From NCBI GenBank assembly GCA_044425555.1, contig JAWXVF010000028.1:1-22524 (forward strand): a DNA stretch of 22,524 nucleotides. The letters run 5' to 3'. Within the stretch, counting starts at the first letter, position 1, and each line of letters begins with the position of its first letter. Origin of the DNA: Eubacteriales bacterium (GTDB lineage Bacteria; Bacillota; Clostridia; Lachnospirales; Lachnospiraceae). A model generated the notes under the pieces. The model was not told the origin of the DNA. It did no database searches and was given only the letters and a program-made list of their open reading frames with translations. The position numbers and the translations under genes were made by a program. Of this stretch, positions 2,220-22,524 are shown one piece after another.

Positions 2220-2223
2220 AGTA

Positions 2224-4622: not shown

Positions 4623-4899
4623 TGAATTTTTAATTGACATTACAGAATCAAATAATTTTATAATGAATAATAAACCTAATGGTAAATTTGATAGAAAAAA
4701 AGGAATTGCGTTAATTGAGAAGCATAAATCTAAGGATATTGTTCTTGCTATGATTAACTCACCATCGAATAAGTCATTTATTCTATATGAGAATGCTGAT
4801 AATGAATTAATATATAATGTGTTATGTGAAATTAATGTCTATTTGTCTTGTAAAGAAATAATAAATGAAAATACACAGGATGGAGATGCAAATGACTAA
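4615..4899 (+). CDS. Hypothetical 94-aa protein embedded between hsdM and hsdS
   Basis: Its ATG overlaps the hsdM stop (ATGAATAG), and its stop overlaps a likely hsdS start (ATGACTAA). I recognise no domain. The C-terminus is acidic. Confidence 0.55.
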   Translation: MNSEFLIDITESNNFIMNNKPNGKFDRKKGIALIEKHKSKDIVLAMINSPSNKSFILYENADNELIYNVLCEINVYLSCKEIINENTQDGDAND

Positions 4900-6028: not shown

Positions 6029-6029
6029 A

Positions 6030-6557: not shown

Positions 6558-6569
6558 AGGAGGGACACC

Positions 6570-9500
6570 ATGCCAAGCTTCATATCCGAAGACATGATCG
6601 AACAAGCAACCATTCAAAAATTAGTTGAATGTAACCAATACAATTCCATTAATTGCTACACTTCCGATCCTGATACTTTGGAGGATGGAAGTGGTAGGGA
6701 ACATAAAAAGCAAGTGGTGTTACCTACTGTTTTACGTGAGAGTTTAGTACGGTTGAATAAACAGTTACCTATTTCCCTTGTAGAAAAAGTTGCCAAAGAA
6801 TTAGAGAAAACACCCACAACCGCTATGGTAATGGAGGCTAATTACCAATCTTATCAAACCATAAGAAATGGTATTGATGTAGAATATGATGAAAACGGCA
6901 AGAAGAAAAAAGGGAAACTAAAAGTAATTGATTTTACCCATCCAGATCATAATGATTTTACAGTTGTTTCCCAATTATGGATTCGAGGTGAGGTTCATTG
7001 GCGTAGACCAGATTTGATTCTCTATGTAAATGGATTGCCAATGGTATTTATAGAGTTGAAAAACTCTAATATTAAGGTGAAGAATGCCTATGACAAGAAT
7101 CTAATGGATTATAAAAAAGATATCCCTTATTTATTTCAGTATAACCAAGTTTGTGTATTATCCAATGGAACGGAGACGAGGATTGGTAGTTTTGCTGCTG
7201 GGTATGAACACTTTTTTGAGTGGCTGAAAATAGAAGATGAAAAAGAAAATCCCAATCGGAAAGAAATCAAAGACAATGCCATTAGCCTAGAATACTTAAT
7301 AAATGGCTTACTACGAAAAGAAGTATTAATAGATTATATAGAAAATTTTATCTTATACGATAGACAACGAATCAAATTAATTGCCAAGAACCATCAATAT
7401 TTAGGAGTGAATAATGCCTATGAAGCCTTTTTAAAGAGAGAACACCTAGAAGGAAAGTTAGGTGTATTTTGGCATACCCAAGGGAGTGGAAAGAGTTATT
7501 CCATGGTAATGCTTACAAGAAAAATAAAGCATAAAGTAAATGGGAATTTTACTTTTCTAGTAGTGACAGATCGAGTAGATTTAGATGATCAAATATGGAA
7601 AAATTTTTATCGTACAGAATTTATTTCTAAAGATGAAAAAGTTCGCCCTGCAACTGGTGCAAAACTTCGTGAAGAATTAAAGAATCATAAAACCATCTTA
7701 TTTACTACGATTTATAAGTTTAAATACGATAAAGGGAAAGAGTATCCTATTTTATCAGAGCGTGATGATATTGTTGTGATTGTAGATGAAGCACACAGAA
7801 CTCAATATAAGGATTTAGCAGAGAATATGCGAAAAGGATTACCTAATGCACAATTTCTAGCATTTACAGGAACTCCTTTATTAGGAGCAAAGCGATTAAC
7901 CAACGCTTGGTTTGGAGATTATGTTTCAGAATATAATTTTACCCAATCAGTCAATGATCATGTAACAGTTCCATTATATTATATCAATGGTATGAAAGAG
8001 GTACGATTGCAAAATGATTTTCTTGATAGTGATTTGTCAGAAATATTGGAAGATGAAAATCTGTCAGATTCGGAACGAGAAAGACTTGAAAATCAGTATG
8101 CCAAGGAATTAGAAGTGATTAAGCGTGATGATCGATTAAAAACCATAGCAAGACACATTGCATACCATTTTCCACGTAGAGGATTTCTAGGAAAAGGTAT
8201 GGTAATTTCCGTTGATAAATTTACCGTAGTTCGCATGTATGATATGGTAAATAATTACTGGAAGGAAGAAATTAAAAATCTAAATGTGGAGATTACGAAC
8301 ACAGCTGATGAAAATAAGCGTATAGAACTAAAAAGAATGGTAGATTATATGCGAAAAGTACAAATGGCAGTTGTAGTAAGTGGAGAAGAGAAAGAAGAAG
8401 AGAAATTTCAAAAACAAGAACTCACCATAAAAGTACATCGTGATAAAATGAATGCAGTCGATGAAAATGGAATGGATATAGAAGATAATTTTAAAGATGT
8501 CAATCACCCTTTAAGCCTAGTGTTTGTATGTTCTATGTGGTTGACGGGGTTTGACGCACCTTCCATATCTACTTTATATTTGGACAAGCCTATGAAGGGA
8601 CATACTTTGATGCAAACCATTGCTAGAGCTAATCGAGTGTACCCAGAGAAAACAAGTGGCATTGTCATTGGCTATTTAGATGTGTTTAAATCTTTGAAAA
8701 AAGCATTACTAGACTATGCAGCAGGGGATGAGGAAGAGCTACCAGTTAAGAATATTGAGAAATTGTACGAACAGCTTTTAGAAGCTATTGAAATGACGAA
8801 AACCTTTTGTACTACACAAGGCATTGATTTAGCAAGTGTAGAGGAGAAAGAGGATGTGTTTGCCAATTTATCTAAGTTAGAAGAATTTGCCAATATCCTT
8901 GTATCCAATGATGAAGTGAAAAATGAATTTCGAGTTCTTGCTAATACCGTTGGGAATTTATATGAAGCATTACGACCAGATATTTTCAAAATGGATTTTC
9001 GTGCCAATGAAAAAGAAATCATACTATACTTAAAAGGAATCCTTGATGGGAAAATAAGACCTGAAAAGATAGAGGCTGCTAAGTATAAGATAGATGAGTT
9101 GTTAAATCAAAGTATAGTTGCAGAAGAAACGACTACCTATGATGTGGGAAATTCTCAGGAAACTTTACCTGCCATTACCACGTCAGAACCTATTGATTTA
9201 TCGAAAATTGATATAGATGCATTAAAAGAGCAAATGCAGAAAGCAAAATATAAGAATCTAGAAATAGCCAATCTACGTGAGCATATTGAGAAAATTTTGG
9301 CACAGATGATAAAGAAAAATAGAACCCGTACTAGTTTTGCAGAACGATTCCGTCATATTATAGATGAATACAATGCAGGAGGGGCATACAATGATGAGTT
9401 TTATAAAAAGTTATTAGAATTAATGCGAGAATTGCAAGAGGAAGAACGTAGGCATATTAGGGAAGACTTAAGTGAGGAAGAACTGGAATTTTACGATTTG

Positions 9501-9776
9501 TTACAAAAAGATAAATTAACGAAGGAAGAATTAAAGCGTGTAAAACTTGCTGCTAGTACACTCTACCAAACGTTGCTTGCGAAAAAAGAAGAATTATTCG
9601 TAGTAGGGTGGGAAAAAGACGAACAGCCAAAAGAAAAAGTAAGAAAAGAAATTATGGCAATCTTAAATGAATATCTTCCGGATAGTTACAACCGTGAAAT
9701 TTTTGCTAATAAATCGGATGTAGTCTTCTATCATATTGTGGACCAAGCGTTGATGGGATTGAATTGGATTGCTTAG
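6570..9776 (+). CDS. hsdR: Type I R-M restriction subunit R (nuclease plus SF2 helicase/translocase)
   Basis: AGGAGGG RBS. PD-(D/E)xK-type motif PDLILYVNGLPMVFIELK, Walker A HTQGSGKS, DEAH-type VVIVDEAHRTQ, motif VI QTIARANR, and a long helical C-terminal domain. Confidence 0.95.
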   Translation: MPSFISEDMIEQATIQKLVECNQYNSINCYTSDPDTLEDGSGREHKKQVVLPTVLRESLVRLNKQLPISLVEKVAKELEKTPTTAMVMEANYQSYQTIRNGIDVEYDENGKKKKGKLKVIDFTHPDHNDFTVVSQLWIRGEVHWRRPDLILYVNGLPMVFIELKNSNIKVKNAYDKNLMDYKKDIPYLFQYNQVCVLSNGTETRIGSFAAGYEHFFEWLKIEDEKENPNRKEIKDNAISLEYLINGLLRKEVLIDYIENFILYDRQRIKLIAKNHQYLGVNNAYEAFLKREHLEGKLGVFWHTQGSGKSYSMVMLTRKIKHKVNGNFTFLVVTDRVDLDDQIWKNFYRTEFISKDEKVRPATGAKLREELKNHKTILFTTIYKFKYDKGKEYPILSERDDIVVIVDEAHRTQYKDLAENMRKGLPNAQFLAFTGTPLLGAKRLTNAWFGDYVSEYNFTQSVNDHVTVPLYYINGMKEVRLQNDFLDSDLSEILEDENLSDSERERLENQYAKELEVIKRDDRLKTIARHIAYHFPRRGFLGKGMVISVDKFTVVRMYDMVNNYWKEEIKNLNVEITNTADENKRIELKRMVDYMRKVQMAVVVSGEEKEEEKFQKQELTIKVHRDKMNAVDENGMDIEDNFKDVNHPLSLVFVCSMWLTGFDAPSISTLYLDKPMKGHTLMQTIARANRVYPEKTSGIVIGYLDVFKSLKKALLDYAAGDEEELPVKNIEKLYEQLLEAIEMTKTFCTTQGIDLASVEEKEDVFANLSKLEEFANILVSNDEVKNEFRVLANTVGNLYEALRPDIFKMDFRANEKEIILYLKGILDGKIRPEKIEAAKYKIDELLNQSIVAEETTTYDVGNSQETLPAITTSEPIDLSKIDIDALKEQMQKAKYKNLEIANLREHIEKILAQMIKKNRTRTSFAERFRHIIDEYNAGGAYNDEFYKKLLELMRELQEEERRHIREDLSEEELEFYDLLQKDKLTKEELKRVKLAASTLYQTLLAKKEELFVVGWEKDEQPKEKVRKEIMAILNEYLPDSYNREIFANKSDVVFYHIVDQALMGLNWIA

Positions 9777-9781
9777 AGTAA

Positions 9782-10570
9782 ATGCATGAAAATAAGAGGG
9801 AGGTAATTATGATTGAGAAGACACAAAATGTATTAATATCAACCTTATTAGGTAAGGAACTAATTTTTGAAATTGATAATGATGATTTAAAACCAAAAAC
9901 AATTGAATTGTTCAAGAGGTTTATTTCTCATATTCCGATTGTAGAAATTCAAAATGAAACCTTTTATAGAGCCAGAGTCATTGCTGATGAGGACGGTATG
10001 GAACAAGGAATTGTGAGAGAAAATGGAATTCCAATTACTGGATATAATACAATATATTCAGGTGTTCCGCCAAAAGAAGTGATAAAGCATGAAGGTAGAG
10101 TAAATCGAATAAATGAACAGGTATTATATATTGCAGAAGATCAAGAAACAGCAATTCGTGAACTAAAAGATGAGAAATCTAAATATTTTTCTGTTGCAGA
10201 ATATTTTGTAAAAGAGCCAATTAAGGTGTTTGATTGTTCTGCATTTACGAAAGAACAACTAGAGGAGACATTGTCACCAAGTATTAGAGATGAGTTTGAA
10301 AATAAATATCAGATGTCATTGACAATATTGTATATAAAGCTACAAGAACATTTAACGTTTGGACCATCAAAAAAAGATGGCGAAAAGGAGTATAAATTTT
10401 CCTTAAAAATGATTGATTTCATGAAGGAATATCATAATATATCAGGAGTTAAATATGTTTCGTCGTACACATATAAATCTAATGTAGCAATTTGGGATGA
10501 TAATAAATTTTTGAAATGTGTAAATAGTATGGTTGAACGAAAGAAGGGGAAGCATAACAAAGACAATTAA
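9782..10570 (+). CDS. RES-domain protein (NAD+-targeting toxin superfamily) with no adjacent Xre-type antitoxin
   Basis: The R/E/S signature is in the canonical order: FYRAR..., EGRVNRINEQVLYIAEDQETAIRE, and GVKYVSSYTYKSNVAIWD. The probable true start is ATG 9809, 5 nt after AGAGGGAGG. Confidence 0.75.
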   Translation: MHENKREVIMIEKTQNVLISTLLGKELIFEIDNDDLKPKTIELFKRFISHIPIVEIQNETFYRARVIADEDGMEQGIVRENGIPITGYNTIYSGVPPKEVIKHEGRVNRINEQVLYIAEDQETAIRELKDEKSKYFSVAEYFVKEPIKVFDCSAFTKEQLEETLSPSIRDEFENKYQMSLTILYIKLQEHLTFGPSKKDGEKEYKFSLKMIDFMKEYHNISGVKYVSSYTYKSNVAIWDDNKFLKCVNSMVERKKGKHNKDN

Positions 10571-10613
10571 GGATTAACTCTAAATATAGCATGTAGAAAC
10601 AAAAGGAGTTCAT

Positions 10614-11816
10614 ATGAAATTAAGAAAAATTAACTTTAAAAACCACCCCATTTTAAAAGATTTACAAGTAAGTTTGGAAGATGAAAAAGGGGAAATAGTA
10701 AATACAGTTATATTTATTGGGGATAATGGAAGTGGAAAAACAAGTATTCTTAGAGGAATTTTGGAGAACTTTCAATCTTCTAAGGTTGAAAAATTCCTAA
10801 AAGGAACAGATTTGGATAGTTTAGAGCTTTCTTTTGGAAAAGAACTACTCAAAACAATACCAGATAATGCATTGTCAGAATATTCTGTGATATATTGGGG
10901 AATAAAAAATTCTGTTTTTGCTATTGACGAATCTGATCAGGATGCAACAAGTATAGGAAAGATTGTATTCATGCCAACGGAAATTAATTTTTCTATGGCA
11001 ACTGCAATAGATACAAGAAAAGAAATTCCAGATCAATTTATTAATATTATTGATCAAAAGATTGCAAATGATATATCTTCTTTTGTTGCTACAGCAATTG
11101 AAACAGAAGTATTTAAAAATGAAGATGTGGCAGTAAAAGAAAGTATGAAAAAAGTTTGTGATGAAATCAATTCTATTTTTCAATGTATGGATTTAGAGAT
11201 TGAACTTGTAGGATTATCTAAAGATGAGAAGAAGCAACCTATTTTCAAGAATCACAATAATGATACGTTTGCAATTGAGGATTTATCATCAGGAGAAAAG
11301 CAACTATTCATACGTGCGTTATCTTTAAAGTTTTTAAACATTAATGATTCTATTATTCTTATTGATGAACCTGAAATTTCGCTACACCCACAATGGCAAC
11401 GAAAGATTATCAGCGTATATGAAAGTATTGGTAGGAACAATCAATTAATTATTGCAACTCATTCGCCCCATGTCATAGGAAATATTAGAAAAGAGCAATT
11501 ACGAGTTTTACATCGAGATCATAATGGTATTCAGATAGTGCCAACGGAGGAAGTAGAACGAACATATGGACAGACTATAGAATCCATATTAACTCACAAT
11601 ATGGGACTTGAAAGTGTACGAAATGAAGAATTACAATTTAAAATAGAACAAATTCAAAAATTATTACGAAATGAGAACGCCTTAGAAAATAAGGAATTTC
11701 AAGAATTATTAATAGATATTTCAGAACACCTAGATGATTCCGATGTAGAGATGGCACTTATCAATGCACAAATAAAACGGATGAAAATGAGGGGTACTAG
11801 AAATGTTGAACAATAA
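10614..11816 (+). CDS. ptuA: ABC/SMC-like AAA ATPase, Septu PtuA-like
   Basis: Walker A GDNGSGKTS, signature LSSGEKQ, Walker B IILIDEPEISLHPQWQ, H-loop IIATHSPH. An HNH partner gene overlaps downstream. Confidence 0.75.
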   Translation: MKLRKINFKNHPILKDLQVSLEDEKGEIVNTVIFIGDNGSGKTSILRGILENFQSSKVEKFLKGTDLDSLELSFGKELLKTIPDNALSEYSVIYWGIKNSVFAIDESDQDATSIGKIVFMPTEINFSMATAIDTRKEIPDQFINIIDQKIANDISSFVATAIETEVFKNEDVAVKESMKKVCDEINSIFQCMDLEIELVGLSKDEKKQPIFKNHNNDTFAIEDLSSGEKQLFIRALSLKFLNINDSIILIDEPEISLHPQWQRKIISVYESIGRNNQLIIATHSPHVIGNIRKEQLRVLHRDHNGIQIVPTEEVERTYGQTIESILTHNMGLESVRNEELQFKIEQIQKLLRNENALENKEFQELLIDISEHLDDSDVEMALINAQIKRMKMRGTRNVEQ

Positions 11817-12375
11817 GAAAGCAAATGAGCCATGCGAGTATACGGATTTGGCAAAGAAAGTATCTAATTATCAGGAGTTTGATACTCATATAAAAGAGAT
11901 ATTGAGAGATAATTTCATTTGTGAGCAAGATTCTTACTGTCCATATTGTGAGCGAATTATTGAGAATAATGTTAACAGTTGTCATATTGAACATATAAAG
12001 CCACAATCTGCTTATCCTAATCAGAGCAAAGAGTATACCAATATGATTTTATCTTGTAATAATAAAAATACATGTGGGATACGAAAAGGGAATCAATACC
12101 ATGAGGATTTTATAAATCCTACGATAGAAAATCCAACATTTTATTTAAAATACGATTTAGCGTCAGGTGAAGTTTATTCCGTTGATGATAATCCTAAGGG
12201 AGAGTACACCATTAAAGTTTTGAACTTAAATGACAAAAAACTGAAACAAATGAGAAGGAATAAAATTTTTACTTATATAAATTTAGATAGTTCCATGCAA
12301 TTAAAACTTATAAATTGGGAACTAGAGAATTTGTATGGGAGTAACTTGATTTTCCGCAAATGCATTTGGAATTAA
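11803..12375 (+). CDS. ptuB: HNH endonuclease, Septu PtuB-like / TIGR02646-like (retron-type HNH)
   Basis: It overlaps the ATPase gene by 14 nt. The Cys/His motifs are CPYCERI...SCHIEHIKPQS...NMILSCNNKNTCGIRKGN. Confidence 0.75.
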   Translation: MLNNKKANEPCEYTDLAKKVSNYQEFDTHIKEILRDNFICEQDSYCPYCERIIENNVNSCHIEHIKPQSAYPNQSKEYTNMILSCNNKNTCGIRKGNQYHEDFINPTIENPTFYLKYDLASGEVYSVDDNPKGEYTIKVLNLNDKKLKQMRRNKIFTYINLDSSMQLKLINWELENLYGSNLIFRKCIWN

Positions 12376-12449
12376 AGGAAAGTTTAGAATTATGATATAA
12401 AAATCTTAGAAGTGAAAAAGTGAGAATTGATATGAAGTATGTAGTATTA

Positions 12450-13604
12450 TTACCCATCCCAAGTCCTTCCTTCCATCCAATCCCTAAATTCCTCCGCTGT
12501 CATACAACCATTAACATAGTCACGTCTAACCTGTTGGAGTTGTTTAGACCAGTTTAGAAAGCTATCACGTATATGGTTAGCAACATCTAAATCATATTCA
12601 TTGTCTACATGACGTTCCATACGTGCATGAGTTGATTTATAGAGTTTGCTATACATTTTTAGTAAAGGATCTTTCTCCACATTTTCTTTATATTTTTGCT
12701 TATTACCGATTTCTTTGCAAGATTTTCCGTTTGTATCTACTCTGTCACAATATAAAGTATCGTGTTTAGAGAGAAGGACAAAATAGCGATTACAGTTTTG
12801 ACATTTACGAATGCGTAGACCACGTTTAATGACTTCGATAAATTCAAAATATAATAATTCTTCAAAGTCTTTGAGTAGTACATACTCAGTAATATTAGCA
12901 CTAGTAGTATTTAGATTATGTATTTCTGTGAGAATGTCCATATGCCGTTGTAAATTACTACTTGCATTGGTACCAATTAATTCTTGCTGTTCAAAGTCTA
13001 ATTTCCCATTTTTCGTGGGAGCTACACTTACTCCGGTTAGAAAGTGAAAATTAGAAAAATCAGGGTATAGACCAAGAAAGGATAGAAAACCTGCTGTAAT
13101 AGATGATAATGGTTTATCAAAATCAATATCGCAACAAAAAGTAATACCCTTTTCAAAGAGTTCCAGTAGTACCAGTACCTCATCTAAAGTAGCAACACCT
13201 AATTGTAACTTTTCAGGATAGGGATTCTGGCTTTGAAAGATTACATTTAATTTTTCACGAGTATAAAAATGTGCAATAGGAAAGCTTTGATATAATATGG
13301 TGACTATTTCATATAAATATTGTTCTGAAATTTTAGAAACAATGGTAATATCGTTATCATTCATATGCTTTGTATCCGTATGCATAGTGGAGATGGTCTC
13401 TTTTGCTTGGTCAACTTTACATTTATATTCGCTTAAATCAGCTAGAAGAAATTCTACCAATAATTTTCCAATATAATCGCAATCAAACATTGCTGCGCCT
13501 GCATCTGCATATACCATATATCTAACCCTATTATGAATGTCTGTATAAGCTTTCATATAGGGTTTCTTTATGTTTGAAAACATAGTGATTATCCTCTCTT
13601 TCAC
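12450..13604 (-). CDS. Hypothetical protein with a C-terminal zinc ribbon (possibly DUF6076-like); a backbone gene divergent from rep
   Basis: 384-aa ORF. The Cys cluster is CQNCNRYF...YCDRVDTNGKSCKE. The likely real start is ATG at 13583, about 8 nt downstream of AGAGAGGA on the minus strand; the track start is GTG 13604. Confidence 0.65.
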   Translation of the reverse strand: MKERIITMFSNIKKPYMKAYTDIHNRVRYMVYADAGAAMFDCDYIGKLLVEFLLADLSEYKCKVDQAKETISTMHTDTKHMNDNDITIVSKISEQYLYEIVTILYQSFPIAHFYTREKLNVIFQSQNPYPEKLQLGVATLDEVLVLLELFEKGITFCCDIDFDKPLSSITAGFLSFLGLYPDFSNFHFLTGVSVAPTKNGKLDFEQQELIGTNASSNLQRHMDILTEIHNLNTTSANITEYVLLKDFEELLYFEFIEVIKRGLRIRKCQNCNRYFVLLSKHDTLYCDRVDTNGKSCKEIGNKQKYKENVEKDPLLKMYSKLYKSTHARMERHVDNEYDLDVANHIRDSFLNWSKQLQQVRRDYVNGCMTAEEFRDWMEGRTWDG

Positions 13605-13824
13605 AATCTAGTAATTTAACCTATAAAAATTTCTTTTGTTACACCTTATTTTTTTAATCTTCCTTTTTTTGTATGATAACACAATGTATATGGTATATTT
13701 TGTCAAAACCTGTCATGGATAATTACTTTTTACAAATTTATGGAAAATTAGTCCTTCATTTTTAATGTATTACATTTGCGATAAACTAAGCAAGTCAACA
13801 AAATAAGAAAGAAAGGGGGAACTT

Positions 13825-14814
13825 ATGGAACACACAAACTATGTATTTTATCGTTTGCCAAAGGTATTGTTTACCAATGAGAAATTACACCAATTATCAA
13901 TTGAGGCAAAATTATTGTATACAGTTATGCTAGATCGTCTTTCTTTATCCATAATCAATCAGTGGAAAGATAAGGAAGGAGAAGTATACATTTATTTTAC
14001 TATTGAACATGGGTGTGAACTTTTAGGTAAGAGTTATTCGAAAATATCCAAAGTAATGGCAGAATTAGAAGCACTCAAGTTGATTGTTCGTAAACGCCAA
14101 GGGCAGGGGAAACCATCTAGGATTTATGTGAAAACAGATATGTTACAGACACCTATCATAGAAGCAGAACCTACAAATATAGCGGACAAGATAGGAGATA
14201 TACAAGTATCAAGAGATAGTTCTTTCACGGTTCAAGACCTATTAGAAACAGATACGAATAAGACTAATAGGAATCAAAATAATACCAATAAGATAGAGTC
14301 AATCCATCTATCCTATGAGAATGGGATAGAAGAAGACACTTGTTTAGAAGATGTTATTTTCAAAGAATTGTTAGAGGAACAAACACTACCTAGAGAATAT
14401 CTTTACCAAGAGGAGAAATTAAGGATTGCCTTTCAGATTTTAACGGAACATGAAATATTTGTTAGGAATAGTAAAAAGAATTATGATTCCCAACAAGATT
14501 TAAGTATTTTGAATTTATTGATACAAGCATTATGTGAAATGCTAACCGAGAAAAAGCCTATGCAGATAAAGGGCTATTTAGTTACGGTTAGTCAAGTCTA
14601 CAAAAAATTAATAACCTATCTTAGCTTTGAACATCATCATCCATCTATGTATACATTTTATACAACTGTGATGGATGACTACAAAACAGGCGCTATTCAT
14701 AGTGAAATAAAACATCATCTTGGCTATATGAAAGCATGTATCTGGAATGTTTTGCTAGTAGGAGACATTAGCCTTCAAACGAAATTGTTAAATCACTTTG
14801 GAGGGCAAATGTAA
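13825..14814 (+). CDS. Replication initiator protein, RepA_N family
   Basis: The N-terminus YVFYRLPKVLF...LSIEAKLLYTVMLDRLSLS...VRKRQGQGKPSRIYV is the typical RepA_N signature. RBS AAAGGGGGA. Confidence 0.85.
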   Translation: MEHTNYVFYRLPKVLFTNEKLHQLSIEAKLLYTVMLDRLSLSIINQWKDKEGEVYIYFTIEHGCELLGKSYSKISKVMAELEALKLIVRKRQGQGKPSRIYVKTDMLQTPIIEAEPTNIADKIGDIQVSRDSSFTVQDLLETDTNKTNRNQNNTNKIESIHLSYENGIEEDTCLEDVIFKELLEEQTLPREYLYQEEKLRIAFQILTEHEIFVRNSKKNYDSQQDLSILNLLIQALCEMLTEKKPMQIKGYLVTVSQVYKKLITYLSFEHHHPSMYTFYTTVMDDYKTGAIHSEIKHHLGYMKACIWNVLLVGDISLQTKLLNHFGGQM

Positions 14815-14820
14815 AGGCAA

Positions 14821-14920
14821 CACACCCAAAGGGTGTGGCAAGCATCCTATCTGTAAGACGCTAACGCATCTTAATCATAAGATTTACAATCTTATGATGG
14901 ATAGGTTCCTGCTAACGCAG
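14821..14920 (+). promoter_or_regulatory. Candidate origin of transfer (oriT) upstream of mobC and the relaxase gene
   Basis: Hairpin CACACCC-AAA-GGGTGTG (14821-14837). An 11-bp perfect inverted repeat, ATCATAAGATT-tac-AATCTTATGAT (14874-14898), is flanked by CCTATC (14846-14851) and GATAGG (14900-14905). The 9-bp direct repeat GCTAACGCA occurs at 14860-14868 and 14911-14919. Confidence 0.5.
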
Positions 14921-14937
14921 ATAAAAAAATAAAAGAA

Positions 14938-15273
14938 ATGGAGAAGTGGAAAATGAATAAAACAAATAGTATTACCTTTCGTGTATCAGACCATGATAAA
15001 AAATCAATTGTAGCAAGAGCGAAAAAAGGGAAGATGAAAACTTCTGATTTCTGTCGTTATGCTGTATTAGGAAAGGAAGTACGACACATTGAAGGGCTAA
15101 AGGAATTGATATTTGAATTAAATAAGATTGGAAATAATCTAAACCAATTAACGGTATTATGTCACCAAAGACGAGTGGATAATCCTAATTTAGAAGAAAT
15201 AACTTACCAATTAAATAGCGTATTTGATGTAATCGTAATGGTACTAGGAGGTGATGACTATAGCAATTGTTAA
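14938..15273 (+). CDS. mobC: Relaxosome accessory protein MobC
   Basis: The ELNKIGNNLNQLTVL motif is typical of the MobC family, with a ribbon-helix-helix-like N-terminus (ITFRVSDHDKKSI). The likely start is ATG 14953, after GGAGAAGTGG. Confidence 0.85.
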   Translation: MEKWKMNKTNSITFRVSDHDKKSIVARAKKGKMKTSDFCRYAVLGKEVRHIEGLKELIFELNKIGNNLNQLTVLCHQRRVDNPNLEEITYQLNSVFDVIVMVLGGDDYSNC

Positions 15274-16417
15274 ACCCATTAAAGTACGAAGTGGAAATTT
15301 GGCTGGACTGAAAGGAGTTTTAACTTATATTCAAGAAGACCATAAAACAGAAGATGGAAAGCTTGTGTGGGGAAAAGATTTGGTAAAAGGGAAGGAATTT
15401 GAGCAGATGTTTATTACAAAAAAAATGCATCAGAAAATAAGCGGTAGACAGTATGCTCATTTTGTGCAAAGTTTTGGTGTAGATGATTTAGTGACACCAG
15501 AGATGGCGTTTACAATTTCTAAGGAATTTATTAAGCGTAATCACAAGTTTGATGATTTCCAAGTGGTATCTGCAGTGCATACAAATGAGAAGCATATGCA
15601 TATTCATTATATTGTGAATTCGGTTGGCATAGAAAAAGGAGAGAAGTGGCAATGCTCCCCTAAAGATTTAGAAAAAATGCGTAATATTTCAGATGAATTA
15701 TGCTACGAGTATGGTTTATCGGTTATTGAACATCGAGGGAACTTCCATCAAAAATATGGGGAATATAAAGCATTTAAAAGTTGGAAACAACAACTTGCAA
15801 GTGACATTGCAAAAAGTGTAGAAGAAAGTTTTTCACTGGAAGATTTCTACCACAATTTAGATAGCAGGGGGATTGATTGTAGTTTTGGTAATCATAATAT
15901 TATGTTTCAGGTGTTTGCTGGGTATTGTGGCTTAAACGGGGAACGATTCTGTAGCAATTATAAGCTAATGTCCTATGGAGATTTTAGTAGGGAGAATATC
16001 TTAAATAGTGTAGATTATAATGATTATAATCTAAAATCAGGATTAATTGCTATACATCAAGGTGGTGATATTTTTCAGGAATTAGCACAACTTGATATAT
16101 GGGGAAAGGAAGATATGAATATAGATATGTCTAGCTTGTATCAGGCAGTAATACAAGAAATAGAATTTAAAGGAAAACCGTGGTATCAGATACAGACTAT
16201 TATTGTCCAATTACATGCAGACCAAATGAAACAAAAATTAGCTAGAGAAGGGCTATTGGCACTACATGAACAAAAGAAACAGAGAAAACAGCAAAACATA
16301 TTTCTGCCATCAATCTGCAATCTACTTGAAGAGTTTTATTATTGGAAATACCAAAAAGAACTTAATAGAAATGACAGGTATAGAGAAGAAGAGTTAGAAG
16401 ATATGTGGGAACTCTAA
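15251..16417 (+). CDS. Relaxase/mobilisation nuclease (MobA/VirD2-type)
   Basis: N-terminus TIAIVKPIKV..., the histidine triad region HTNEKHMHIHYIVNSV, and AGGAGG immediately upstream. It overlaps the mobC 3' end. Confidence 0.9.
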   Translation: MMTIAIVKPIKVRSGNLAGLKGVLTYIQEDHKTEDGKLVWGKDLVKGKEFEQMFITKKMHQKISGRQYAHFVQSFGVDDLVTPEMAFTISKEFIKRNHKFDDFQVVSAVHTNEKHMHIHYIVNSVGIEKGEKWQCSPKDLEKMRNISDELCYEYGLSVIEHRGNFHQKYGEYKAFKSWKQQLASDIAKSVEESFSLEDFYHNLDSRGIDCSFGNHNIMFQVFAGYCGLNGERFCSNYKLMSYGDFSRENILNSVDYNDYNLKSGLIAIHQGGDIFQELAQLDIWGKEDMNIDMSSLYQAVIQEIEFKGKPWYQIQTIIVQLHADQMKQKLAREGLLALHEQKKQRKQQNIFLPSICNLLEEFYYWKYQKELNRNDRYREEELEDMWEL

Positions 16418-16683
16418 TAGCTTGTCATAAAAAGAAAGCAATTCACATAATATTAAACAGCATAATGGAGGTGCAGGAGATGAAAGAAAAGGAAAAATTA
16501 AATATTACATTTCATAATCCAAACACTGGCGATGAGTTAATTAAGGAGTTGATTAGAATTTCTGCGTCAATGGCACATGAAACGGTGAAGAAAAAATTAC
16601 TTGCACTGGAACAAGAAGAAATGAATACATATACTTTGCAAAATGAAACACAAGATAATGAAGATGATGAATGGGAACGATAG
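16405..16683 (+). CDS. Small hypothetical protein; likely start at ATG 16480
   Basis: GGAGG (16467-16471) lies 8 nt before ATG 16480, giving MKEKEKLNITFHNPNTGDELIKELIR.... The C-terminus is acidic. I recognise no domain. Confidence 0.5.
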   Translation: MGTLIACHKKKAIHIILNSIMEVQEMKEKEKLNITFHNPNTGDELIKELIRISASMAHETVKKKLLALEQEEMNTYTLQNETQDNEDDEWER

Positions 16684-16694
16684 GATAGGGATTG

Positions 16695-16733
16695 GGGAAT
16701 AACTTTTACAAGGAGTTATTCCCTTCCTTCTTT
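16695..16733 (+). terminator. Intrinsic terminator ending the rep-mob transcription unit
   Basis: 10-bp stem, GGGAATAACT (16695-16704) pairing with AGTTATTCCC (16714-16723), with a 9-nt loop and a T-rich tail ttccttcttt. Confidence 0.7.
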
Positions 16734-16785
16734 ACATGAGTCAAAAGTTGCTAAAAGAAAATATGATAATTTTCTAGGAAATAGA

Positions 16786-16814
16786 TTGACACATTAACAT
16801 AATGGACTTATAAT
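16786..16814 (+). promoter_or_regulatory. Perfect consensus sigma-A promoter: TTGACA, 17-nt spacer, TATAAT
   Basis: TTGACA at 16786-16791 and TATAAT at 16809-16814, with a 17-nt spacer. It lies upstream of the AlbA_2 gene and recombinase gene pair. Confidence 0.6.
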
Positions 16815-16860
16815 AAAATAGATGTAACAGATATAGAAAAATAACGAATAATATGTCGAA

Positions 16861-18396
16861 ATGGAGGTAATCATGGGGATAGCAACCAATATCAAGACTT
16901 TGCTATCAGGGAATGTAGTTGAATGGGCAAGAATTGAATACAAAGAAACATGGGATGCTGTTGCTTCTTTGAAAACTATATGTGCATTTGCTAATGATCT
17001 TGATAATTGGGGTGGTGGATATCTTGTCATAGGTGTTAAGGAGGAAGAAGGTCGTCCAATATACCCATTACAAGGAATAGCAACTGATAAAATAGATAGT
17101 CATCAAAAGGATATTCTATCAAAATGTAAACTGATTCGTTCAGAATATATGCCAATAATAGAAGTAGTGGAATATCAAGAGAGAAACTTTATCATACTTT
17201 GGTGTCCAGGAGGAAATACAAGACCTTATTCATCACCTAAGACTATGGGTAAAGATAATAAAGATCGGATTTATTATATACGCAAAGGGTCAAGTACCAT
17301 AATCCCAACTTCAGAAGAAGAGAAGGACTTATTTCATTTAGCCAATCGAGTACCTTTTGATGATAGAATAAATAATCAAGGGGAAATGACAGATTTGAAT
17401 ATTACACTGATTCAAAGTTATTTGAAGGAAGTAAATAGTTCTTTGTTTGAAAAATTAAAAACAGAGGATTTTACTTCTGTTTGTCGTGATATGAATATTA
17501 TTGGGAATCTTCCAGAATATACGAAACCTAAAAATATAGGACTTATGTTCTTTAGTCTAGAACCAGAAAAGTTCTTCCCCTATGCCCAAATAGACGTAGT
17601 GCAATTTCCACAAGGATTAGGGGGCGATAATATCATAGAGCAAACTTTTAAAGGACCCATTCAGCAACAACTAAGAGATGCACTTATATATATTAAAAAT
17701 ACAATTATTACAGAAAAAGTGATTAAACACCCTCATAAGGCAGAAGCAGATCGGTTTTTCAATTATCCTTATGCTGCCATTGAAGAAGCCTTATCTAATG
17801 CAGTGTATCATAGAGGTTATGATGAAAGAGAACCCATTGAAGTACGTGTAGAGAATGATAGGATAGAGATTGTAAGCTTTCCTGGTCCGGATCGTTCAGT
17901 AACCGATGAAGGTCTGAAAAGTTATCGTGTGTCCAATCGCAGATATAGAAATAGAAGAATTGGAGAGTTTTTAAAAGAATTGCATTTGACAGAAGGAAGA
18001 AATACAGGATTTACAAAAATATTAAATGCTTTGAACGCAAATGATTCCCCACAGCCTGAATTCGAAACTGATGAGGATAGAACTTATTTTATTGCAAGAT
18101 TTTTCATACATGAATGTTTTAAAATAGAAAAATATGGAGTGGATTTAGAAGTAGAAACACCTTCAATAACACCTTCAATAGCACCTTCAAAAAGCGATCT
18201 GCTATTACAAGAAAAAATCATTAAATTAATAAGAAAAAATCCTAAAATTACAAGAAAAGATATGGAAAACAAATTGAAAATTTCTGAATTTATGTTAAGA
18301 AAACAAGTGGAATTTTTAAAGAAAAATAATACCATCGAGTACGTAGGTTCTAGCAAAGGTGGTAATTGGATTATAAATAGGGAGGGCAACTCATGA
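16861..18396 (+). CDS. AlbA_2 (Schlafen-like 'divergent AAA') / HATPase_c_4-like ATP-binding protein with a C-terminal winged HTH
   Basis: N-terminus GNVVEWARIEYKETW...ICAFANDLDNWGGGYLVIGV is AlbA_2-like. The central region EEALSNAVYHRGYDEREPIEVRV...GRNTGFTKI follows. The C-terminal HTH is KIIKLIRKNPKITRKDMENKLKISEFMLRKQVEFLKKNN. The likely start is ATG 16873, after GGAGG. Confidence 0.75.
   Translation: MEVIMGIATNIKTLLSGNVVEWARIEYKETWDAVASLKTICAFANDLDNWGGGYLVIGVKEEEGRPIYPLQGIATDKIDSHQKDILSKCKLIRSEYMPIIEVVEYQERNFIILWCPGGNTRPYSSPKTMGKDNKDRIYYIRKGSSTIIPTSEEEKDLFHLANRVPFDDRINNQGEMTDLNITLIQSYLKEVNSSLFEKLKTEDFTSVCRDMNIIGNLPEYTKPKNIGLMFFSLEPEKFFPYAQIDVVQFPQGLGGDNIIEQTFKGPIQQQLRDALIYIKNTIITEKVIKHPHKAEADRFFNYPYAAIEEALSNAVYHRGYDEREPIEVRVENDRIEIVSFPGPDRSVTDEGLKSYRVSNRRYRNRRIGEFLKELHLTEGRNTGFTKILNALNANDSPQPEFETDEDRTYFIARFFIHECFKIEKYGVDLEVETPSITPSIAPSKSDLLLQEKIIKLIRKNPKITRKDMENKLKISEFMLRKQVEFLKKNNTIEYVGSSKGGNWIINREGNS
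18157..18192 (+). repeat. Three tandem 12-nt repeats inside the AlbA_2-like ORF, in the linker before the wHTH
   Basis: ACACCTTCAATA, ACACCTTCAATA, GCACCTTCAAAA encode TPSI-TPSI-APSK. Unit-number changes would stay in frame. Confidence 0.8.
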
Positions 18397-19931
18397 ACAT
18401 TGTAGCTTACTGTCGTGTTTCTACCGACAAAGAAGACCAGTTAAACTCCATAGAAACACAGAAGAAGTTTTTTGAAGAATATGCGATTAAGCAGGGACAT
18501 AATCTTGTAACGGTCTATGCAGACGAAGGAATTTCTGGTACGAAAATTAAAAATCGTACCCAGTTTCAACGACTTCTACGTGATGCTAAGCATGGCTTAT
18601 TTGAAATGGTTGTGGTAAAGGATATTTCCCGTTTTGCAAGAAATACAGTTGATTTATTAAATAGTACAAGACAACTTAAGGAACTAGGTATTGAAACTAC
18701 CTTTCTTACAGCCAATATGTCTGTGCTAGGACAGTCCGAATTTGTCTTAACAATTTTTGGAGCATTAGCCCAAGAAGAAAGTGCTAATACATCAAAACGT
18801 GTGAAATTTGGTAAGAAAATGAATGCACAAAAAGGGCGAGTACCTAATATGGTATATGGTTATGATAAGACGAAAGGAGATTACTTTAGTCTTAAGATTA
18901 ATGAATACGAGGCAAGTATTGTACGAAGAATCTACGATTTATATTTAAATAGTGGTTACGGTGCCAACAAAATTGCACAGATACTAAATGCAGAAGGGAT
19001 TCGTACAAAACGAGATTGTAAATGGTCACAAAATGCCATTTGCCGAATTTTAACTAATGAAATTTACACAGGAAAGATTATTAATGGTAAGGAAGAGATT
19101 GCTGATTTTCTAACAAGTAAGCGGGAGAAAAAAGAGGAATGTGATTGGTTTATTGTGGACAAGCCAGAACTTCGTATTATGGAAGATGATGTATTTGTTA
19201 AGGTAGGGAAATTATTAGAGGAACGAAATCTGAGCTTTCATACGAATAAACAACGTCAATCCAATAAGCATTTATTTTCTACTTTAATTCGTTGTTCTTG
19301 TTGTGGCTATAGCTTTCGCCGTGTAGAAAAGCAATATAAAAATGTATACATTCGTTGGGTATGTAGTGGGCGAAATGCCAATGGTGCAGATTCCTGTCCT
19401 AATACCTATAAGATGGACGAGCAGGCATTAAAGGAAGAAATTTCTAAGTATTTGCTTGACATACTCAATCAAAAAGAGAATGTGATGAAAAATATTGTGG
19501 CTGAATTCAATCGCACTTATCATACGAAAGAGGAAAACAAAGATTATGAGAAATCTTTAACAGAACGATTAGGTAAAGCAGGGAAATCAAGAAAGAGATA
19601 TATGGATATGTATGAAGATGAATTGATTACGAGGGAGGAACTTCGTGAAAAAGTTGGTTCACTTAATATAGAAATCGAAAAAGTAGAAAATGAATTAAAG
19701 TTAATACAATATAATCTAACAAAGGGTGACCAATTAGAGGGCGTATTAGAAAGCACATTTAAAAATCTAGAAAATATTTTCGATATTGAGAGCATGTCCA
19801 ATGTACAGCTAAAAGAAATTATAGATAAGATTATAGTGGATGAACAAGGGAAAATAGACGTATATCTAAAGCTTTTATCGGATATAGGAATAGAACAGTC
19901 TGTGATTCTGATTAACTACAACCAAACATAA
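18393..19931 (+). CDS. Large serine recombinase (element integrase/excisionase)
   Basis: Resolvase-type N-terminus VAYCRVSTDKEDQ with the catalytic Ser, VVKDISRFARN, a recombinase domain, the zinc ribbon CSCCGYSF...WVCSGR...CPN, and a C-terminal coiled coil. ATGA start/stop overlap with the upstream gene. Confidence 0.95.
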   Translation: MNIVAYCRVSTDKEDQLNSIETQKKFFEEYAIKQGHNLVTVYADEGISGTKIKNRTQFQRLLRDAKHGLFEMVVVKDISRFARNTVDLLNSTRQLKELGIETTFLTANMSVLGQSEFVLTIFGALAQEESANTSKRVKFGKKMNAQKGRVPNMVYGYDKTKGDYFSLKINEYEASIVRRIYDLYLNSGYGANKIAQILNAEGIRTKRDCKWSQNAICRILTNEIYTGKIINGKEEIADFLTSKREKKEECDWFIVDKPELRIMEDDVFVKVGKLLEERNLSFHTNKQRQSNKHLFSTLIRCSCCGYSFRRVEKQYKNVYIRWVCSGRNANGADSCPNTYKMDEQALKEEISKYLLDILNQKENVMKNIVAEFNRTYHTKEENKDYEKSLTERLGKAGKSRKRYMDMYEDELITREELREKVGSLNIEIEKVENELKLIQYNLTKGDQLEGVLESTFKNLENIFDIESMSNVQLKEIIDKIIVDEQGKIDVYLKLLSDIGIEQSVILINYNQT

Positions 19932-20064
19932 AGATATAACAGACCGTTTAATGCAAATCAATCCAACCTTAGCAATGGAAGCTAGAAAAATATTGGATGT
20001 GAATAAATCAGAACGTCATATTCGTGGTGGATTGGCAACGAAAGAAAAATATTCACACAGTTAA
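19927..20064 (+). pseudogene. spoIIID: 3' segment of the split sporulation regulator gene spoIIID (C-terminal half only)
   Basis: The in-frame translation HKDITDRLMQINPTLAMEARKILDVNKSERHIRGGLATKEKYSHS* is collinear with the C-terminal half of B. subtilis SpoIIID as I recall it (HKDLTERLPEINPDLANEVKEILDYHKSIRHLRGGEATKLKYK). There is no RBS and no N-terminal HTH half. An upstream in-frame stop lies at 19909-19911, inside the recombinase ORF. Confidence 0.8.
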
Positions 20065-20078
20065 GCGGAAACGGGATT

Positions 20079-20100
20079 GCATCTATTAGGGTGCTTTTCT
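20079..20100 (+). terminator. Weak candidate terminator after spoIIID
   Basis: 5-bp stem, GCATC pairing with GGTGC (one G-U pair), a 6-nt loop, and a TTTTCT tail. Confidence 0.3.
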
Positions 20101-20206: not shown

Positions 20207-20884
20207 ATGAATGTTAAAATTGTTGGAGAACCATTACCAGTGGCAATATGTCAAGTGGAAGCAGGAGAAACCATTATCACAGAAAGTGGCGCAATGAGTT
20301 GGATGAGTGGTAATATGAAAATGGAAACCACAGGTGGTGGTTTAGGTAAAGTGTTTGGGCGCATGGTATCAGGAGAAAATCTGTTTCAAAATCGTTATAC
20401 AGCAGAAGGTAGAGAGGGAGAGATTGCTTTAGGTGCTAAGATGGCAGGCTCTATTCGTACTTATGAAATTTCTAATGGTAGATCATTAATTGTACAAAAG
20501 GGAGGATTTTTAGCAGGAACAGAGGGAATTGAGTTAAGCATTCATTTTCGGAAAAAATTGTCTTCTAGTTTGTTTGGTGGCGAAGGATTTATTATGCAGA
20601 AAATTTCTGGTGACGGAATAGCCTTAATTGAATTTGATGGTCATGTGGTAGATTATGATTTGCTAGCAGGGGATAAAATGGTGGTAGATACAGGATATTT
20701 AGCAGCTATGGACGAAACCTGTACAATGGATATTGTAACAGTACCAGGGGTGAAGAATATGTTGTTAGGTGGTGAAGGAATCTTTAACACAGTGATTTCT
20801 GGACCAGGTCGAGTAAGTTTGCAAAGTATGCCGATATCAAATTTAGCATCTACGTTAATTCCATATATGCCAACAGCAAGGTAA
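20207..20884 (+). CDS. TIGR00266 / AIM24 (DUF124) family protein
   Basis: 225-aa ORF with a GAAGGAGAG RBS. The Gly-rich beta-type sequence (GGGLGKVFGRMVSGENLF, GGEGFIMQKISGDG, LLGGEGIFNTVISGPG) matches my recollection of this family. Confidence 0.7.
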   Translation: MNVKIVGEPLPVAICQVEAGETIITESGAMSWMSGNMKMETTGGGLGKVFGRMVSGENLFQNRYTAEGREGEIALGAKMAGSIRTYEISNGRSLIVQKGGFLAGTEGIELSIHFRKKLSSSLFGGEGFIMQKISGDGIALIEFDGHVVDYDLLAGDKMVVDTGYLAAMDETCTMDIVTVPGVKNMLLGGEGIFNTVISGPGRVSLQSMPISNLASTLIPYMPTAR

Positions 20885-20976: not shown

Positions 20977-22524
20977 ATGGATAACAGAGAAAAAGTAATT
21001 GTGATTGATTTTGGGGGACAATACAATCAATTAGTAGCAAGAAGAGTACGTGAATGTAATGTCTATTGTGAAATTTATTCTTATAAAACGGATATTAATA
21101 AAATAAAAGAAATGAATGTAAAAGGAATTATTTTAACGGGTGGACCTAATAGTTGTTATGAGGAGGGAGCACCTACGTATTCAAAAGACTTATTTTCTCT
21201 TGGAATACCAGTATTAGGCTTATGTTATGGTGCACAACTTATGAATCATATATTAGGTGGAGAAGTTAAAAAGGCCGAGGTAGGGGAGTATGGAAAAACA
21301 AAAATAAACATTATAAAATCTTCTCCAATCTTCAAGGAAGTGCCAGAAAAGACAATTTGTTGGATGAGCCATTTTGATTATATTCATCAGGTAGCACCTG
21401 GATTTGAGGTTACAGCTACTACCACAGATTGCCCTGTTGCGGCAGCAGAAGATAGTGATAAGAAATTATATGCTATACAATTTCACCCAGAAGTATTACA
21501 TACTATAGAAGGTAGTAGAATGCTATCTAATTTTGTTTATTCGGTATGTGGTTGTACTGGGACTTGGAGGATGGATTCATTTGTAGAACAATCTATTCAA
21601 GCTATTCGAGAAAAGGTAGGAACTGGAAAAGTACTTTGTGCTTTATCAGGAGGGGTCGATTCCTCAGTGGCAGCAGTACTTTTATCAAAAGCAATTGGCA
21701 ATCAGCTTACTTGTGTCTTTGTGGATCATGGATTATTACGAAAAGATGAAGGGGATGAAGTAGAAGAAATTTTTGGACCATCGGGACAATATGACTTGAA
21801 TTTTATTCGTGTTAATGTGCAGGAACGCTATTATGATAAATTAAAAGGAATCGAAGATCCTGAAGCAAAGCGTAAAATAATAGGGGAAGAATTTATTCGT
21901 GTCTTTGAAGAAGAAGCAAAAAAAATAGGTGCTGTTGATTTCTTAGTACAAGGGACAATCTATCCAGATGTTGTGGAAAGTGGAGTAGGTGGAGAATCTA
22001 CAGTTATTAAATCTCATCATAATGTAGGTGGACTTCCTGATTGTGTGGATTTCAAAGAGATTATTGAACCTCTTAGAGATTTATTCAAAGATGAAGTTAG
22101 AAAAGTAGGGTTAGAATTGGGAATACCAGATTATTTAGTATTTCGTCAACCTTTCCCAGGACCTGGATTAGGAATTCGCATCATTGGGGAAGTCACAGAA
22201 GAGAAAGTGAAAATCGTACAGGATGCAGATTTTATCTACCGTGATGAAATTGCAAAAGCAGGACTTGATAAGGGAATTGGACAATATTTTGCCGCACTTA
22301 CCAATATGCGTTCCGTAGGAGTTATGGGTGATGAACGCACTTATGACTTTGCAGTTGCACTGCGTGCTGTTAATACGATTGACTTTATGACAGCGGAATC
22401 GGCGGAGATTCCTTATGAAGTGTTGAATAAAGTTATGAATCGAATTATTAATGAGGTGCAAGGGGTAAATCGAGTATTGTATGACTTGACTAGTAAACCG
22501 CCGGGAACGATAGAGTGGGAGTAA
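20977..22524 (+). CDS. guaA: GMP synthase (glutamine-hydrolysing)
   Basis: Class I glutamine amidotransferase N-terminus (GLCYGAQL with the catalytic Cys; QFHPE), ATP-pyrophosphatase P-loop SGGVDSS, and the canonical C-terminus KPPGTIEWE. Confidence 0.97.

Follow-up and report, generated by a model that had tools for sequence, protein, structure and literature searches.

A defence-rich mobilisable element inserted in spoIIID of a Lachnospiraceae bacterium and its probable excision in the mother cell

Why does a serine recombinase gene in a Lachnospiraceae genome run directly into the second half of spoIIID, and can the gene be made whole again? The DNA in question (the window) is a stretch of 22,524 nucleotides from an Eubacteriales bacterium of the Lachnospiraceae (GenBank assembly GCA_044425555.1, contig JAWXVF010000028.1, positions 1 to 22,524). 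SpoIIID is the first dedicated mother-cell transcription factor and is required for sigK expression. Of a defence-rich integrative mobilisable element (IME), the window shows the right-hand part, with a length of at least 19.9 kb, and the right chromosome junction; the left end of the element lies before position 1. It is essentially certain that this island, which encodes a large serine recombinase (LSR), is inserted in spoIIID at His38, and sequence comparison suggests that such islands probably excise only in the spore's mother cell. The junction and its host side comprise the following features.

18393-19931, + strand: LSR, 512 amino acids (aa) (Pfam Resolvase, Recombinase and Zn_ribbon_recom; PHROG 95 integrase)
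19895-19950, + strand: attR (P arm 19895-19926, CA 19927-19928, host B' arm 19929-19950)
19927-20064, + strand: spoIIID 3' segment (PF12116, TIGR02844 and tblastn)
20079-20094, + strand: terminator-like hairpin after spoIIID
20207-20884, + strand: AIM24-family gene, host flank
20977-22524, + strand: guaA, host flank, running past the window end

The spoIIID segment extends from the His38 codon to the stop and contains 45 codons plus the stop codon. Its frame translates from 19927 as HKDITDRLMQINPTLAMEARKILDVNKSERHIRGGLATKEKYSHS*, is closed upstream by TGA at 19909-19911, and has no start codon, ribosome-binding site (RBS) or N-terminal helix-turn-helix (HTH) half. The 50-aa translation of 19912-20061 matched the Pfam family SpoIIID (PF12116) at profile positions 35-80 of 82 (E=2.9e-20; 72.6 bits against a gathering cut-off of 27) and TIGR02844 (spore_III_D) at positions 34-79 of 80 (E=6.6e-19); the score for the latter, 68, is below the cut-off of 111.5 because half of SpoIIID is missing. 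In tblastn with full-length queries, the identity of the fragment was 87% with a Lachnospiraceae SpoIIID over residues 35-81 (E=1.8e-25) and 62% with SpoIIID of Bacillus subtilis (E=1.3e-14). A complete SpoIIID, of about 82-93 aa, combines an HTH at the N-terminus with a basic region at the C-terminus, and the window holds only a fragment of such a gene, namely its 3' half, broken within the recognition helix of the HTH. The N-terminal half was absent from both strands of the window (tblastn, two SpoIIID queries, E up to 100), and a fuzzy search of the window for the P' arm of attL, expected to resemble CATATGGTTGTAACAAAATAGAACGG, gave no match. The insertion is inside the coding sequence of a mother-cell sporulation gene, with the His38 codon flush with the element end. 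The downstream flank is native: guaA lies 3' of spoIIID in related Lachnospiraceae loci too, with protein identity up to 83%. The preliminary description of this DNA, made from its letters, had placed the end of the LSR open reading frame (ORF) at 19931 and had read from about 19927 a second frame, stopped at 19909-19911 and devoid of start codon, RBS and N-terminal half, as collinear with the C-terminal half of SpoIIID from the recognition helix onward. The LSR stop (TAA, 19929-19931), the translation and the homology searches all agree with it, and the significant alignment of the 45-aa translation to SpoIIID, on which that reading depended, was found.

To see how often this arrangement occurs, relatives were sought with an alignment of four LSRs, using one genome per species. 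At least 562 species-representative genome stretches encode relatives of the window LSR, and the split-gene counts given here cover the best 80 of these loci. In 79 of the 80, the SpoIIID 3' half directly follows the LSR, starts at residue 35-38 and breaks at the same His codon, and all 79 3' halves of this split type have intact frames of 45-56 aa. The window LSR, located at the element edge, is 61-62% identical to the LSRs of loci L003, L007 and L014, and the motif YCRVSTDK is invariant in the four family LSRs. It has the resolvase catalytic domain, the recombinase domain and the zinc ribbon of an LSR, and the family attP is a dyad with a central dinucleotide. Protein searches led to the same picture from both sides of the break. 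With the 50-aa fragment we obtained many ORFs of 54-74 aa reading ...FQIVTT[VAIT]HKDV..., where intact proteins read ...GISKSTVHKDV..., and two 3' fragments examined in context had an LSR 61-62% identical to that of the window directly upstream. With the N-terminal 40 aa, the top 120 matches were all ORFs of 41-68 aa ending in ...SKSTVH plus element-derived tails (MDVTKWKG, AVVTIRNVL). The hosts include Blautia spp., Laedolimicola, Hominiventricola, Schaedlerella arabinosiphila DSM 106076, Sporofaciens, Pseudoflavonifractor, Flavonifractor and Anaerotignum, as well as many metagenome-assembled genomes (MAGs) of Lachnospiraceae and Oscillospiraceae. These results show that a large family of LSR elements occupies this spoIIID site in Lachnospiraceae, Oscillospiraceae and other Clostridia.

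The sole exception among the 80 is Christensenella sp. Marseille-P2438 (L057; LT700187.1, 11480-11640), in which unrelated DNA follows the P arm and CA. Here the element seems to have used a secondary site, and sporulation is not known in this genus. An NCBI MAG gives one split 3' fragment (P0010; ...QPFQIVTTTHKDV...) the name 'SpoIIID [Parabacteroides sp.]', a label that is probably due to a binning error. Contigs of one relative from four metagenome samples (L007-L010) all start 7.2-7.4 kb upstream of attR; a repeat, or heterogeneity of the population, at the left part of the element might explain this shared break.

Both halves of spoIIID were present in 13 loci, whose complete elements measure 4.1-11.5 kb. 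The preliminary description had proposed joining attL to attR in silico, and when this was done at the CA of the His codon, a SpoIIID ORF of 82-88 aa was restored in 13 of 13 complete relatives. All ten restored proteins that were looked up matched natural intact proteins exactly, several of them present on hundreds to at least 1000 contigs and named as SpoIIID of Mediterraneibacter gnavus, Schaedlerella arabinosiphila, Laedolimicola/Anaerosacchariphilus and others. Because the restored proteins exist in nature, the halves are undecayed parts of native genes, the join is exact, and the site is occupied in some members of a species and empty in others. The claim that an intervening element splits spoIIID thus stands for the relatives and, in the window, for the 3' half flush with the LSR, but not for a 5' half within the window.

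The attL consensus is ...AGTACGGTA CAT ATGGTnGTAAcAAaATAGAACGG and the attR consensus ...CCGTTCnAAaTaataACaACcATA CAT AAaGATGTnAC.... The attP reconstructed from the 13 relatives, ACCATA-CA-TATGGT within CCGTTC...GAACGG, is a perfect dyad around CA. The P arm of the window ends in ...GATTCTGATTAACTACAACCAAA and fits the family consensus ACCGTTCTAATTnnTnACnACCAwA-CA. From this comparison we infer that the crossover dinucleotide is CA, the first two bases of the His38 codon, at 19927-19928 of the window, which lies inside the interval of about 19912-19930 proposed earlier for attR. The residue before His is V, A, I or T in the relatives and K in the window, and the residue after His varies in attL, because these neighbouring residues are element-encoded. 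The stop codon of the LSR is itself a hybrid in most family members: TAA takes its T from the His codon and its AA from the host Lys codon (window 19929-19931; L003 10039-10041; L007 7329-7331), and relatives with CAC as His codon do not have it. Since this stop is built across the core, the C-terminus of the recombinase would change in an excised circle.

If the gene can be restored, what might direct the LSR toward excision? The region between the mobilisation genes and the LSR contains a short conserved ORF and two predicted promoters of different types.

16420-16429, - strand: SpoIIID-box-like site TATGACAAGC (9/10 match to TAGGACAAGC)
16425-16453, + strand: sigma-E-like promoter TCATAAA-N14-CATAATAT (by resemblance to the consensus)
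16465-16683, + strand: conserved small ORF, 72 aa (67 aa from ATG 16480), motif KLNITFHNPN (motif family)
16694-16724, + strand: terminator-like hairpin after the small ORF
16786-16814, + strand: perfect promoter of the sigma-70 type (TTGACA-17-TATAAT), preceding the SLFN-like gene and LSR
16861-18396, + strand: SLFN/AlbA_2 and HATPase_c_4 protein, 511 aa (Pfam)

The small ORF belongs to a motif family, KLNYRFHNPN...KVE, found in 74 related loci and, as KLNITFHNPN, in the window. The family was set by this motif and by tblastn on the loci of the relatives; a homologue search with the small ORF of the window gave only itself, and it had no match in Pfam, NCBIfam or PHROG. In minimal elements the small ORF lies directly upstream of the LSR. 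An 82-aa ORF of L007 with a weak match to the SpoIIID N-terminus was rejected as a 5' half, having proved to be this small ORF. We regard the small ORF of the window as a candidate recombination directionality factor (RDF).

The motif k-m-[C/A]-T-A-w-t, N14, CATAGtat is common to the 66 non-redundant sequences that precede the small ORF. In the first block, a 7-mer, position 1 is G or T in 65/66, position 4 is T in 64/66 and position 5 is A in 61/66. Exactly 14 nt further downstream comes the second block, which is CATAGTAT or CATAGTTA; the sequence around the two blocks is not conserved. Mother-cell promoters have a -10 element of the form CATA... and a -35 element with ATA, and T at position 4 discriminates sigma-E (PMC3789822, PMC517825). 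The small-ORF promoter therefore resembles a promoter of the sigma-E, mother-cell type; in the window, TCATAAA-N14-CATAATAT is followed by an RBS, the small ORF and the terminator-like hairpin. On the other hand, the promoter upstream of the SLFN-like gene and LSR scores 12/12 as sigma-70 in the window, and at least 24 relatives (e.g. L038, L072 and L027) have TTTACA-N16-TATAAT at a fixed distance of about 73 nt before the LSR start. The stop codon of the SLFN-like gene overlaps the LSR start (ATGA), giving translational coupling in the window, and the two genes are therefore probably co-transcribed. A gene of this type adjoins the LSR also in several relatives, among them L014 (5807-7522) and L022 (6413-8089); the protein of the window, which may serve defence or assist recombination, matched pAgo-associated PADLOC models weakly.

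The small-ORF promoter region shows an excess of SpoIIID-box-like motifs. GGACAA[AG] occurs just downstream of the -10 element in 30/66 sequences versus 1.3 in shuffles, and 27 of the 66 contain a site with at most two mismatches to TAGGACAAGC, versus 4.9 expected. The reference for the mismatch count was the high-affinity site TAGGACAAGC (PMC11180830), taken in place of the B. subtilis consensus WWRRACAR-Y. In the window, the box TATGACAAGC on the minus strand overlaps the -35 element of the small-ORF promoter. In B. subtilis, SpoIIID represses at sites overlapping sigma-E promoters (PMC517825). Because SpoIIID cannot exist before excision, we hypothesise that the box could provide negative feedback after it. 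The predicted pairing of a sigma-E-like promoter for the small ORF with a sigma-70-like promoter for the LSR fits mother-cell-specific excision.

Developmental excision in the mother cell is the best-supported mechanism, and we consider it reasonably likely. In vegetative cells and the forespore, the LSR would be expressed from its sigma-70-type promoter; lacking the directionality factor, it would leave attL and attR untouched, so that the island would be stably inherited with spoIIID off. After asymmetric division, mother-cell sigma-E RNA polymerase would transcribe the small ORF, the proposed directionality factor. The LSR and the factor would then recombine attL with attR at the central CA, the island would leave as a circle, and spoIIID would be intact again. 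Restored spoIIID would let the mother-cell cascade run (SpoIIID, then sigK), and SpoIIID may bind the TAGGACAAGC-like box at the small-ORF promoter and switch this promoter off. The spore would keep the island because the mother cell lyses. A wider proposal, possible but more tentative, is that non-phage LSR islands, widespread in hundreds of Clostridia species of gut and rumen, use spoIIID as a developmental lock, in which sigma-E would drive a new small RDF, spoIIID would be rebuilt and SpoIIID would repress the RDF gene, making the circuit self-limiting and the island a cost-free defence vehicle.

What kind of element carries this arrangement? The genes at 609-19931 are all on the plus strand except that for the DUF6076 protein, and those upstream of the small-ORF promoter are as follows.

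609-1553, + strand: AbiD (PADLOC AbiD E=4.3e-56; Pfam Abi_2)
1791-2219, + strand: DUF4869 protein (Pfam)
2224-2481: small ORF, 85 aa, with no Pfam or PADLOC match
2574-9776, + strand: type I restriction-modification (R-M) system, whole, with HsdM, HsdS and HsdR domains in one operon
2574-4622, + strand: hsdM (Pfam N6_Mtase/HsdM_N)
4615-4899, + strand: small ORF, 94 aa, in the type I R-M region, with no Pfam or PADLOC match
4865-6028, + strand: hsdS (Pfam Methylase_S)
6030-6557, + strand: SieB-like (superinfection exclusion) membrane protein, between hsdS and hsdR (Pfam SieB)
6570-9776, + strand: hsdR (Pfam HSDR_N/SWI2_SNF2/T1RH-like_C)
9782-10570, + strand: RES-domain protein, candidate toxin or defence gene (Pfam RES E=3.6e-5; no PADLOC match)
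10614-11816, + strand: Septu PtuA (PADLOC E=2.9e-111; Pfam AAA_21/AAA_15)
11803-12375, + strand: Septu PtuB, adjacent to PtuA (PADLOC E=3.7e-42; Pfam HNH_4)
12450-13604, - strand: DUF6076 protein (Pfam)
13825-14814, + strand: RepA_N (Pfam; PHROG DnaD-like/replication initiation)
14938-15273, + strand: NikA/MobC (Pfam)
15251-16417, + strand: MobA/VirD2 relaxase (Pfam)

An IME is recognised by an integrase and a relaxase or mobilisation functions without a conjugative type IV secretion system (T4SS). The window has the LSR, NikA/MobC, the MobA/VirD2 relaxase and RepA_N, and Pfam found no T4SS-type domain in any ORF of the 19.9 kb in the window, further genes being possible to its left. Likewise, no capsid, terminase, tail or lysis domain was found by Pfam among the 20 window proteins, and the PHROG matches in the window were limited to integrase, replication and helicase-like proteins. 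A phage origin was rejected on the lack of phage structural genes and on the low identity (<36%) of the LSRs of true phages. In the phage collection, LSRs of the family type were absent from genuine phage genomes, the sole match there being MT838016.1. This GenBank entry, a 6.4-kb human faecal contig named 'Bacteriophage sp.', contains, within 2113-3775, an LSR of the family (58% identity) and after it SpoIIID residues 35-84, and is evidently an element fragment rather than a phage.

Three defence systems in the window are firm by PADLOC and Pfam, namely AbiD, the type I R-M system and Septu, accompanied by several candidates; the island is defence-rich, as the preliminary description had stated, but its count of at least four systems reduces to these three plus the candidates. 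The relatives carry AbiU, AbiLi/AbiLii and fused AriAB (PARIS), and further AAA_21/RloB pairs, primase/VapE genes and acetyltransferases. The LSR family is thus a set of compact defence islands, typically with anti-phage genes.

Spore-gene intervening elements form a known class: skin in sigK, SPbeta in spsM, vfbin in spoVFB, vrin in spoVR, gin in gerE and yin in yabG (PMC5595907, PMC4191935, PMC10747680). By its logic, skin(Cd) of Clostridioides difficile (LSR CD1231 and RDF CD1234) is the closest known system; a constitutive LSR and a sigma-E-dependent small RDF have been established for it experimentally (PMC5025042). As in skin(Cd), an LSR element splits a mother-cell regulatory gene; the recombinase promoter is sigma-A there and predicted to be of the sigma-70 type here; a small protein without database homologues is present (72 aa there, 67-72 aa for the candidate RDF here); and the small gene has a sigma-E-type promoter with a SpoIIID box nearby, both predicted in our case (PMC5025042). 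Unlike skin(Cd), the target here is spoIIID, one step upstream of sigK. Whereas SpoIIID activates the RDF gene of skin(Cd), the box described here could act only after excision, since SpoIIID cannot be present earlier, and would probably mediate repression. The cargo also differs, skin(Cd) consisting of prophage remnants and the present element of defence and mobilisation genes.

In nature, the closest known system is gin, which splits gerE of Bacillus cereus ATCC 10987. Like the present element, gin is not a phage, carries a restriction-modification system and interrupts a mother-cell transcription factor gene of very small size; the LSR GirC and the accessory factor GirX excise it (PMC5595907). 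It differs in target gene, in host class (Bacilli) and in having three recombinase genes, where one is present here, and its excision was shown experimentally, whereas that of the present element is proposed from sequence. Reconstitution of a sporulation gene by an LSR, confined to the mother cell as proposed here, is also known from SPbeta/spsM of B. subtilis (SprA and SprB) and skin/sigK (SpoIVCA). SPbeta combines a constitutive recombinase with an RDF under a sigma-E/K-type promoter (PMC4191935, PMC5595907), which matches the predicted design. SPbeta and skin are active or defective prophages of Bacilli, unlike this non-phage element. The likeness to skin and SPbeta drawn in the preliminary description accordingly applies to the spoIIID-splitting LSR architecture and not to a phage-like nature, the RepA_N, NikA/MobC and relaxase genes being IME-like. 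In B. subtilis, spoIVCA expression itself is reported to depend on SpoIIID (PMC6957869), a circuit that would be impossible here. A more distant parallel is the XisF/fdxN element of Anabaena heterocysts, where terminally differentiated cells lose an intragenic element through an LSR, as proposed here, but in another phylum and with another developmental programme and target. NCBIfam XisF was among the best named matches of the window LSR (E=6.2e-33), scoring 114 bits against a cut-off of 375; this score is far below the cut-off, and the LSR is therefore not an XisF equivalog.

The preliminary description pointed to no known element interrupting spoIIID; one is in fact listed, a 64.7-kb 'skin-like' element in spoIIID of Ruminiclostridium cellulolyticum H10 (CP001348.1, 3645999-3711011; Galperin et al. 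2022, Table S3, bioRxiv 10.1101/2022.02.25.481979). Compared through its Table S3 entry alone, this element is three times longer than the part in the window; it splits spoIIID into fragments of the same size (126 nt 5' and 144 nt 3') and has a 511-aa LSR at its edge. Unlike in the family described here, in which the LSR always adjoins the 3' half on the same strand, the H10 LSR (Ccel_3111) adjoins the 5' half on the opposite strand, an arrangement that points to the same site having been used a second time, independently or in inverted form. A full-text literature search found no study of a spoIIID-intervening element beyond this table entry and no analysis of the H10 element, this LSR family, the att site, the small ORF or its promoter. 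Within this known class, the present family stands out by its unusual place in the regulatory cascade and its striking prevalence.

The main rival to mother-cell excision is a plain mobile element that inactivates sporulation. The island would then be an ordinary IME for which the recognition-helix sequence of spoIIID is a convenient conserved attB; the knockout would be permanent, the carriers asporogenous, and excision would serve transfer only. Several observations favour this account and weigh against developmental excision: the RepA_N, NikA/MobC and relaxase genes; the coexistence of occupied and empty alleles within species; the relative at a non-spoIIID site in Christensenella; and a score of 10/12 as sigma-70 for the small-ORF promoter of the window. 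Developmental excision is further weakened by C, not the consensus A, at -35 position 3 in 48/66 upstream sequences, by the lack of any known RDF homologous to the small ORF in the databases searched, and by the absence from the window of the 5' half and attL of this genome, which lie beyond the window start. No match from the genome of the window turned up when genome_contigs, metagenome_contigs and viral_contigs were scanned with exact 42-mers and 27-mers, and exact look-ups of its AbiD, LSR and HsdM proteins were likewise negative; exact copies of the AIM24, DUF4869 and small-ORF sequences occurred only on short Logan contigs (SRR26879388, SRR26557941 and SRR26557943) that repeat the window. 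The excision products attB and attP were not observed, and the scan of viral_contigs for the attP pattern gave chance matches only, 11 candidates being rejected as excised circles for having no LSR and no arms. Permanent inactivation is nevertheless hard to reconcile with the CATA-type -10 element and the T4/A5 -35 element, kept at 14 nt in 66 divergent sequences that are mostly unlike sigma-70 promoters, with the enrichment of SpoIIID-box-like motifs at the small-ORF promoter, and with the intact frames of 79/79 3' halves and 13/13 5' halves. The design moreover parallels intervening elements that have been proven experimentally (PMC5025042). We therefore consider an ordinary IME unlikely to be the full account.

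The same loci can be read as a reversible population switch, in which vegetative excision and reintegration would maintain a sporulation-competent subpopulation, as bet-hedging or as 'active lysogeny' in the manner of yin in yabG of Clostridium botulinum. The sigma-70-type promoter of the LSR is compatible with this, as is the shared break of the metagenome contigs of four samples near one relative, and pure cultures contain yin in both of its conformations (PMC10747680). Public data also contain intact as well as split alleles with identical sequences, but these may come from different strains. The conserved promoter of the mother-cell type points instead to developmental control, and circles that do not replicate would be lost, replication or primase genes being present only in some relatives (RepA_N in the window; a primase-like Zn_ribbon_DnaG protein and VapE in L003). 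We judge such a switch improbable. Least credible of all is that the 45-codon fragment is a decayed remnant or duplicate beside a second, active spoIIID elsewhere, leaving the junction functionless. A second copy could lie in the genome outside the window; against this, the same breakpoint codon is flush with the LSR attachment arm in 79/80 relatives, the frame is intact with 87% identity to functional SpoIIID, the fragment occupies its native position upstream of guaA as in related genomes, and the halves of the relatives rejoin to the exact natural allele. Excision in the mother cell remains the reading that we prefer.

Split halves of spoIIID are annotated as short hypothetical proteins or as 'SpoIIID', and because of this mislabelling, sporulation predictions from genomes of gut Firmicutes can err in either direction. 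Island fragments also surface in virome data as 'phage' contigs with 'spoIIID', and lists of 'phage-encoded spoIIID' may hold att-site remnants. The conserved attB and its matched LSR are a possible integration tool for Lachnospiraceae that are hard to engineer. Cultured gut commensals are among the carriers, including Schaedlerella arabinosiphila (altered Schaedler flora), Blautia, Laedolimicola and Hominiventricola, the element occurs as well in sequence identical to Mediterraneibacter gnavus, and the hypothesis is therefore directly testable. The elements of Schaedlerella arabinosiphila DSM 106076, Laedolimicola intestinihominis CLA-AA-H132 and Hominiventricola aquisgranensis CLA-AA-H78B measure 5.3, 5.4 and 8.5 kb, respectively. 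If it is true, the islands would be a major vertically inherited vehicle of defence (AbiD, AbiL, AbiU, PARIS, Septu and R-M) in spore-forming gut commensals, and most of the mother-cell programme, beyond its late phase, would depend on a DNA rearrangement one tier above sigK.

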